In this document: positions 13,698 to 14,040 of the stretch, piece by piece
How the letters are laid out: each line of letters starts with the position of its first letter
Position numbering within the stretch: the stretch's first letter is position 1
Notes under the pieces: model-generated
What the model saw: only the letters and a program-made list of their open reading frames with translations
Told to the model about the DNA's origin: nothing
Database searches by the model: none
Origin: a virus
UHGV virus genome: UHGV-1300783
DNA length: 14,040 bases
Direction: 5' to 3' (one strand)
Translations under genes and position numbers: made by a program

Positions 13698-14040
13698 CTA
13701 TTCACAATTAGTGATGGCGTATGTATCAAATATATTGCCATCACTAAATACATACCTATACTCAATCTCTCCGCCAAGGTGAATAAATGCTTTCATTTGC
13801 CTGTTGGAGCAAATGCTCGATTTTGAATAATTTCGCATTACACTCTTTAATTTATTTTCTAAGGTTACATCACCATTATAAACTTTTGATAAATAGCTGT
13901 TGTTGTAATTAAGATGCGCTACAACTAAGAGTTTGTTTAGTATTGCATTTATTGAAACAATAGACATATTATCATTCAATTTTATGGGAAGTGACTTTCC
14001 TGCTTCTGATGCAATTTTGTTTGCATGTGCACACATATCC
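13698..14040 (-). CDS. hypothetical protein, partial (5' end beyond window), AT-rich convergent ORF
   Basis: Minus-strand ORF open to the window edge; its stop (13698-13700) directly abuts the gp16-like stop (13695-13697). Markedly more AT-rich than the upstream operon, and the protein is N/S/Y/K/I-rich. Could partly be a composition artefact. Confidence 0.35.
   Translation of the reverse strand, partial: DMCAHANKIASEAGKSLPIKLNDNMSIVSINAILNKLLVVAHLNYNNSYLSKVYNGDVTLENKLKSVMRNYSKSSICSNRQMKAFIHLGGEIEYRYVFSDGNIFDTYAITNCE
13708..13747. repeat. 11-bp perfect inverted repeat (TTAGTGATGGC ... GCCATCACTAA) with 18-nt AT-rich spacer
   Basis: Read directly: 13708-13718 and 13737-13747 are reverse complements. 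Sits 11 nt after the gp16-like stop, inside the 3' end of the minus-strand ORF. No clear U-tract on either strand. Confidence 0.8.

Follow-up and report, generated by a model that had tools for sequence, protein, structure and literature searches.

The junction downstream of the gp16-like gene

We examined the right-hand end of a 14,040-nt stretch of UHGV virus genome UHGV-1300783 (hereafter the window), where a gp16-like ejection-protein gene converges without any spacer on an AT-rich open reading frame (ORF) of the opposite strand. This ORF is the greater part of a 146-codon gene that is the subject of the present analysis. The features at the junction are as follows:

13698-14040, minus strand: accessory gene, codons 34 to 146 and stop codon of 146 (phrog_8772), with signal-peptide codons 1 to 33 lying past the window end
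13695-13700, both strands: back-to-back stop codons TAG/CTA, comprising the gp16-like TAG (13695-13697) and the CTA (= TAG) of the minus-strand ORF (13698-13700)
10308-13697, plus strand: internal virion or ejection protein gene (gp16-like), 1129 codons, last of the core-protein block (phrog_342)

Exactly past the stop of the gp16-like gene the GC content falls to 0.321 (13698-14040) from 0.494 +/- 0.029 in 1292 N-free upstream windows of 343 bp, a drop of ~6 standard deviations. Only one of the six frames of the segment is open (113 codons, terminal stop only), the other five containing 5 to 13 stops each. At the segment's own base composition the probability of meeting no stop in 146 codons is 4e-6, and an open frame of at least 146 codons appeared in 0 of 2000 shuffles, the longest being 118. 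Based on these ORF and GC statistics, the AT-rich convergent boundary is real and not a chance effect. The last 741 bases of the window, junction included, match 14 complete Escherichia coli chromosomes over their full length at 98.9-99.9% identity, which excludes an assembly artefact at this point. A preliminary description of the window had noted the strong AT-richness after the gp16-like stop and a sole long ORF on the opposite strand with abutting stops, and both observations hold; the sliding-window GC comparison that it proposed confirms the drop, with no N-free upstream window falling below 0.394.

The complete gene was found at the longer locus L003 (16399-16839, minus strand; WP_000595048.1, annotated "hypothetical protein"), and window codons 34 to 146 translate identically to it. 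The 112-aa ORF with an ATG at 14036 listed by program for the window starts at internal Met35, the ORF being cut by the window end. Pairwise comparison of the E. coli, Klebsiella and metagenomic copies gives ratios of non-synonymous to synonymous substitution (dN/dS) of 0.18-0.24 for unsaturated pairs, and the protein matches phrog_8772 with an E value of 2e-79, a family carrying the PHROG label "unknown function". The ORF statistics, purifying selection and family conservation together identify the 146-codon ORF as a genuine protein-coding gene, and the caveat that it might turn out non-conserved or non-coding can be set aside.

A word-indexed search recovered nine clusters of relatives from Escherichia, Klebsiella, Providencia and metagenomic sources, and a full profile search extended these to 306 representatives (E<=1e-3), mostly of 135-180 aa, in some of which the domain is part of a longer protein. 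No significant match to the 146-aa protein was obtained in Pfam, NCBIfam or PADLOC, a match to Ntox35 being dismissed as below cut-off (E 0.056). Neither the 343-nt segment (blastn, distant mode) nor the 146-aa protein (tblastn) had a match among 50,697 deposited phage genomes, and the gene has so far been seen only in prophages and IMG/VR contigs. A pattern scan of GTDB genome contigs produced 173 pattern matches, with 0 confirmed. A literature search by accessions or PHROG number found no paper naming the gene family, which is uncharacterised.

An exchangeable cassette with a sharp breakpoint

To place the junction in a population context, we compared 120 complete E. coli genomes sharing this gp16-like 3' end (megablast). 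In 106 of them the match ends at the gp16-like stop codon or at most 4 bases past it. An alignment of six loci is collinear through the same stop codon and then splits into two unrelated alleles, placing the mosaic breakpoint between 13697 and 13698:

Allele 1 (14 of 120 genomes): 914-bp cassette with the minus-strand 146-codon gene and a divergent plus-strand 149-codon gene (phrog_9944)
Allele 2 (106 of 120 genomes and phage EC.W1-9): plus-strand 282-codon gene (phrog_6118) starting two bases past the stop

These alleles together make up all 120 genomes. Homology between them restarts at a 64-nt element with a hairpin and T run (L003 17313-17376), which marks the right cassette boundary. The Klebsiella version consists of the E. 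coli cassette with a 1.6-kb mnt-arc-ant block inserted between its two genes. The GC content of the 146-codon gene and its homologues is below that of the gp16-like neighbour in all 10 loci measured, by 5-22 points. Presence/absence polymorphism, sharp breakpoints and deviating composition thus identify the gene as an exchangeable accessory cassette (moron-type) of a temperate phage, and the AT-rich boundary as ordinary phage mosaicism. The suggestion made in the preliminary description that a horizontally acquired cargo gene follows the gp16-like gene is therefore borne out, the gene being exchanged between prophages and of foreign composition. Such a precise two-allele recombination hot spot could serve for typing these E. 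coli prophages.

Several other features of the cassette region were observed. GC-rich hairpins followed by a T run, in elements of 62-84 nt, occur at L003 17313-17376 and 20083-20144, at L001 14056-14119 and at L004 18098-18181, and this terminator-like element recurs at joints between accessory-region modules in either orientation. The starts of the 149-codon phrog_9944 gene (L003 16852-17301, plus strand) and of the 146-codon gene are 12 nt apart, and the gap between them (L003 16839-16852) contains the near-palindrome AGGTGACCT, which could serve as a ribosome-binding site on both strands. In Klebsiella the phrog_9944 gene is 1.6 kb away, after ant. The AlphaFold2 model of the 149-aa protein is poor, with a predicted local distance difference test (pLDDT) score of 62 and four of five models below 40. 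The allele 2 gene (L004 14400-15248, in E. coli MCJCHV-1) encodes a protein with a signal peptide and many cysteines and no Pfam match, so that by sequence features both alleles put an exported protein directly after the ejection-protein gene.

The host prophage and its tail fibre gene

The window comprises the structural module of a prophage of E. coli, a temperate podovirus whose head is BPP-1-type and whose tail tube and core proteins are T7-type; it does not come from a T7-type lytic phage. The isolated phage EC.W1-9 (PP445227), which is 98-99% identical across the structural block, encodes an integrase. Gene order at L003 begins with portal, protease, major capsid, Bbp16-type cement and staple proteins and tail tube proteins, and continues with a T7 gp14-family core protein, a 915-aa protein, the 1129-aa protein, the accessory region and the tail fibre gene; holins, an endolysin and a spanin-like gene complete the prophage, after which comes host gene yfgI. 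These structural assignments are backed by PHROG matches. The 1129-aa protein matches phrog_342 ("internal virion protein with endolysin domain") with an E value of 5e-235 over profile positions 192-1227 only, leaving the endolysin part of the family uncovered. The preceding genes include matches to the internal virion protein families phrog_308 and phrog_418 and the 915-codon gp15-like gene, the product of which has a transglycosylase-type region and matches "tail injection transglycosylase" and endolysin PHROGs.

The preliminary description had taken a T7-type genome as its reference, in which gp16 is followed by the same-strand tail fibre gene gp17, and had asked whether the receptor-binding gene was replaced or relocated, or whether the module or prophage ends here. 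A T7-type reference is wrong for this temperate podovirus, since an accessory region precedes the tail fibre gene in all relatives, and the T7 order is not found here, the next gene being on the minus strand. It is correct that the receptor-binding gene does not directly follow the gp16-like gene. Extending the sequence downstream nevertheless located an intact same-strand tail fibre gene (L003 22493-24568, plus strand) 6.1 kb away with eight other genes in between, so that it is neither lost nor replaced, nor does it follow shortly after a short AT-rich spacer. A module boundary does exist at 13697/13698, but not a prophage end, as the tail fibre gene and lysis cassette follow, up to yfgI. 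In the relatives, too, a variable accessory region of 3.6-6 kb lies between the last internal-virion gene and the tail fibre gene, and the 146-codon gene comes first in this region. The boundary is accordingly no sign that a tail fibre gene is missing or has been replaced.

Between the cassette and the tail fibre gene lie a YafO-family toxin gene, two BRO-N antirepressor genes and several unknown genes. The toxin gene (L003 17401-17946, minus strand; Pfam 26.3 bits, cut-off 25) is overlapped on its upstream side by a 59-codon ORF (L003 17921-18100), a possible antitoxin, at the place of which the metagenomic relative L012 has a 48-codon ORF. The antirepressor genes (L003 18161-19286 and 20956-22008) have a near-identical C-terminal half, corresponding to a ~1-kb internal duplication.

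Further observations concern the structural module itself. The RefSeq name "DUF919 family" for the 1129-aa protein is misleading, as it stems from a match to a baculovirus family that spans only 46 residues (23.4 bits), the PHROG internal virion match being far stronger. A run of 100 Ns at 9276-9375 is flanked by a perfect 55-nt direct duplication (9221-9275 = 9376-9430). It is a scaffold join of two contig ends and makes the 915-codon gp15-like gene look like two overlapping ORFs (7406-9565 and 9391-10308). The idea that another AT-rich insertion interrupts this gene (9151-9600) was rejected, the GC dip at 9151-9450 being an artefact of the 100-N gap. Window positions 419-616, a Glu/Gln/Lys-rich part of a 237-codon protease/scaffold-like gene, gave no blastn alignment to L003, which is otherwise 96-98% identical, and represent a locally hypervariable low-complexity segment.

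A conserved position equivalent to the sieA slot of P22

Synteny was sampled at ~30 loci from the family of 306 representatives. Homologues of at least 28% identity are directly downstream of, and convergent with, a gp16-like gene of 937-1133 codons in every longer contig examined, namely four from Providencia (37% identity), three from Klebsiella (~72%), two metagenomic contigs, seven from IMG/VR (those with ORFs mapped, of 13 found; 28-99% for the IMG/VR contigs) and the contig of P0016. At these loci a gp15-like gene comes before the gp16-like gene. The two convergent stops are 0-46 nt apart, with the exception of L026 in which a 94-codon ORF lies between the two genes. The other side of the homologue varies, with the 149-aa protein, Mnt or small multi-pass membrane proteins found there. 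That an uncharacterised family keeps its place beside an ejection-protein gene over such large sequence distances is the point of interest of this locus.

The P22 record shows gene 16 (plus strand) followed after 22 nt by sieA (minus strand, with its own promoter), orf59a and mnt (both minus strand), and then arc, ant and tailspike gene 9 (all plus strand). In Klebsiella, the gp16-like gene is followed after 0 nt by the opposite-strand 143-aa gene, 11 nt upstream of which is a 77-aa Arc/Mnt-family gene (E 1e-7 to P22 Mnt), and on the divergent side by an Arc-like gene, a P22_AR_N antirepressor, the phrog_9944 gene and, further on, a tailspike. The gene thus occupies the sieA slot, following the last ejection-protein gene directly but on the other strand, ahead of the antirepressors and the tailspike or tail fibre. 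Temperate podoviruses are well known to carry an accessory or immunity region in the interval from their ejection genes to the tailspike. P22 SieA blocks DNA injection, and escape mutations affect the C-terminal regions of two ejection proteins, gp16 and gp20 (Leavitt et al., 2024; PMC10883804). All sieA homologues examined in that study lie between genes 16 and 9, and one third of P22-like phages carry sieA (PMC10883804).

In Providencia and several of the IMG/VR contigs, the divergent neighbour of the homologue codes for a very hydrophobic multi-pass membrane protein of 95-112 aa (L005 7387-7674, L028 5662-6000 and L024 5569-5871). The L005 and L028 proteins are 39% identical, representing another envelope protein in the same slot.

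Export signals and predicted fold

The N-terminus of the 146-aa protein (MIKPMHAITATVLFILPIFSFA, followed by NDIC) has a charged start, ~15 hydrophobic residues and an AXA-type cleavage site between SFA and ND with small residues at -3 and -1, a signal pattern that is kept in divergent homologues. No lipobox ([LVI][ASTVI][GAS]C) is present in the protein or its homologues, and its first cysteine is four residues past the cleavage site (SFA, then NDIC). On these sequence features, the protein is a predicted substrate of signal peptidase I with a probable periplasmic location. Cys26, Cys36, Cys110 and Cys145 are invariant or nearly so across 45 relatives, which fits folding in the oxidising periplasm.

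An AlphaFold2 model built from an eight-sequence alignment has a pLDDT of 81, exceeding 90 through most of residues 41-146 and falling below 50 for residues 1-25. The N-terminal signal peptide is the only hydrophobic stretch, and the remainder is modelled confidently as a soluble alpha/beta domain. The predicted fold is that of PA3611 and the AspS/EpsS pilotins, an alpha/beta structure with a five-stranded sheet. Homology and structure prediction on the full minus-strand ORF, as proposed in the preliminary description, thereby led to the phrog_8772 family and a confident pilotin-like model. Profile searches of PDB sequences returned no relative, with 3NPD absent at E<=10, and Foldseek against the BFVD viral structures returned nothing at E<=1e-3. 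The 146-aa protein has no match to the pilotin family PF16549 at the gathering score, and two of the 45 distant relatives match it below threshold (E 0.0016-0.0033; 17.9 vs 25 bits). Characterised members of the fold grip the C-terminal segment of secretins, which form an envelope-spanning channel.

A possible role in superinfection exclusion

We tentatively propose, with somewhat less than even confidence, that the gene encodes a prophage-expressed periplasmic superinfection-exclusion protein that would interfere with the ejection conduit of related phages. The prophage would express the gene in the sense opposite to that of the late operon, and signal peptidase I would cleave the product, which would then sit in the periplasm of the lysogen as a disulfide-bonded alpha/beta domain. 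There it may bind the periplasm-exposed part of the DNA-ejection conduit of incoming related phages (gp14/15/16-like), or the host envelope partner of that conduit, such that DNA entry would fail in a form of exclusion analogous to, and not homologous with, that of P22 SieA. During lytic growth, late read-through to the tail fibre and lysis genes would run antisense through the gene and silence it. We infer expression in the lysogen, the binding target and the exclusion phenotype from an exchangeable yet maintained gene, export hallmarks, the predicted fold, orientation opposite to the late operon and the sieA-like position. An anti-defence role, which the preliminary description had offered as an example, is unlikely because the product is predicted to be Sec-exported and disulfide-bonded, and a defence (exclusion) role fits better.

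A bolder form of the proposal, which we regard as doubtful, is that these proteins are a previously unrecognised class of soluble disulfide-bonded exclusion proteins on the AspS/PA3611 fold, capturing the ejection conduit as a non-homologous replacement of SieA and welded stop-to-stop to the gene of their target across several enterobacterial genera. If true, this would provide a soluble, easily purified handle on the poorly understood periplasmic stage of podovirus DNA ejection and would mean that prophages reuse a secretin-binding fold for defence.

A number of observations weigh against an exclusion role. Comparison of the family alignment with P22 SieA by hhalign found no homology (probability 0.3%), and the protein, unlike SieA, is not membrane-embedded. 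Secretin piloting, as opposed to exclusion, is the one function known for this fold (PMC3542185). None of the PADLOC defence models matches the protein. Upstream of the E. coli allele there is no convincing sigma-70 promoter (best 8/12), the start lying 12 nt from that of the divergent 149-codon gene, and promoter scans gave counts at or below shuffle expectation. Among the E. coli prophages of this type, only 12% (14/120) carry the gene. Distant relatives (E 1e-13 to 1e-22) occur in other or uninformative contexts, and a shared insertion hot spot, as opposed to a functional link, could account for the conserved position.

This last point leads to the best surviving alternative, which we consider unlikely, of a factor for lysogenic conversion or fitness that has nothing to do with phage entry. 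The gene would then be an ordinary moron in a hot spot, its periplasmic or secreted product altering host envelope physiology or the interaction of the host with an animal. Its moron-like composition and presence/absence polymorphism are consistent with such a factor, as are the different exported, Cys-rich plus-strand protein held at the same site by 106 genomes, the YafO-family toxin and BRO-N antirepressors in the same accessory region, the occurrence of distant relatives outside phage ejection modules, and the fact that PA3611 is itself a chromosomal secreted protein of unknown role. However, a hot spot alone fails to explain the near-gapless convergent placement by the gp16-like gene down to 28% identity while the rest of the region varies, or a Klebsiella copy located behind a Mnt homologue exactly like P22 sieA.

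The predicted fold raises the prospect of a soluble pilotin mimic that binds a host secretin at its S-domain (one candidate being GspD of the E. coli type II secretion system T2SS-beta, normally piloted by lipoprotein AspS/YghG), stabilising or diverting the secretin and so modulating type II secretion. We judge this improbable, as a protein with no lipobox could not pilot to the outer membrane, the gene has no gsp linkage and instead sits beside an ejection-protein gene, no solved pilotin is matched at sequence level, and no benefit to the phage is obvious. A periplasmic inhibitor of peptidoglycan hydrolases, acting like T4 Sp on gp5 to neutralise the gp15-like transglycosylase of incoming phages or exogenous lysozymes, has a comparably small chance of being correct; it would be another molecular way of achieving exclusion or of protecting the envelope. 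The hydrolase-type PHROG matches of the neighbouring 915-codon gp15-like protein and the periplasmic sequence features of the 146-aa protein would suit it, and two longer relatives join the domain to Pfam LprI "lysozyme inhibitor" (25.0 and 21.8 bits, the cut-off being 22). The LprI association is, however, restricted to 2 of 45 proteins, the fold matches include no known lysozyme inhibitor (Ivy, MliC/PliC or PliG), and the gene abuts the gp16-like gene and not the transglycosylase-bearing one. Finally, a non-gene, be it a chance ORF in AT-rich junk, a prophage end or an assembly artefact, might be suspected from a scaffolded draft with a 100-N gap elsewhere and from the lack of an evident promoter in the E. 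coli allele, but is refuted and effectively excluded by recurrence of the junction in 14 complete chromosomes, by ORF statistics and purifying selection, by a conserved family with a confident predicted fold, and by continuation of the prophage for 10 kb to the lysis genes.

Comparison with known systems

Exclusion of superinfecting phages, the role tentatively proposed here, is known from proteins acting outside the cytoplasm, including the periplasmic Sim of P1, Sp and Imm of T4, gp15 of HK97, Ltp of TP-J34 and Llp of T5. These are small prophage or phage envelope proteins that block DNA entry, several of which are encoded beside the gene of the virion component they target. To our knowledge none of Sim, Sp, Imm, HK97 gp15, Ltp and Llp has a sequence or known fold in common with the phage protein described here. 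Ltp, from the Streptococcus phage TP-J34, is mentioned in PMC3952083.

Structurally, the protein resembles PA3611 of Pseudomonas aeruginosa (PDB 3NPD), a soluble periplasmic or secreted protein of unknown function. Both the phage protein and PA3611 have a signal peptide without a lipobox and, as far as the model shows, an additional helix following beta-3, by which PA3611 can be told apart from AspS. They differ in that identity is ~14-15% with no profile-level relationship, that the phage protein possesses another conserved pair of Cys residues close to its N-terminus, and that PA3611 is chromosomal whereas the phage gene is linked to an ejection-protein gene. Unlike the AspS/EpsS pilotins (PDB 4FTF, 6I2V and 5ZDH; PF16549 T2SSS_2), the phage protein lacks a lipobox and hence outer-membrane targeting, and its gene is in no gsp operon, the contexts being prophage accessory regions without gsp genes. 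The pilotin disulfide joins the C-terminus to helix alpha-2; in the phage family Cys110, at the end of helix 91-111, and Cys145, at the C-terminus, are invariant across the 45 relatives.

P22 sieA and the immI region provide the comparison in terms of position and distribution. SieA is a multi-pass inner-membrane protein, whereas the protein studied here is predicted to be a soluble alpha/beta domain with disulfides and a signal peptide, and the core proteins of its phages are T7-type as opposed to gp7, gp20 and gp16 of P22. Like sieA, the gene is present in only some phages of its group. Its Klebsiella copy is directly downstream of a Mnt homologue, and Arc and a P22-type Ant are oriented divergently to it.
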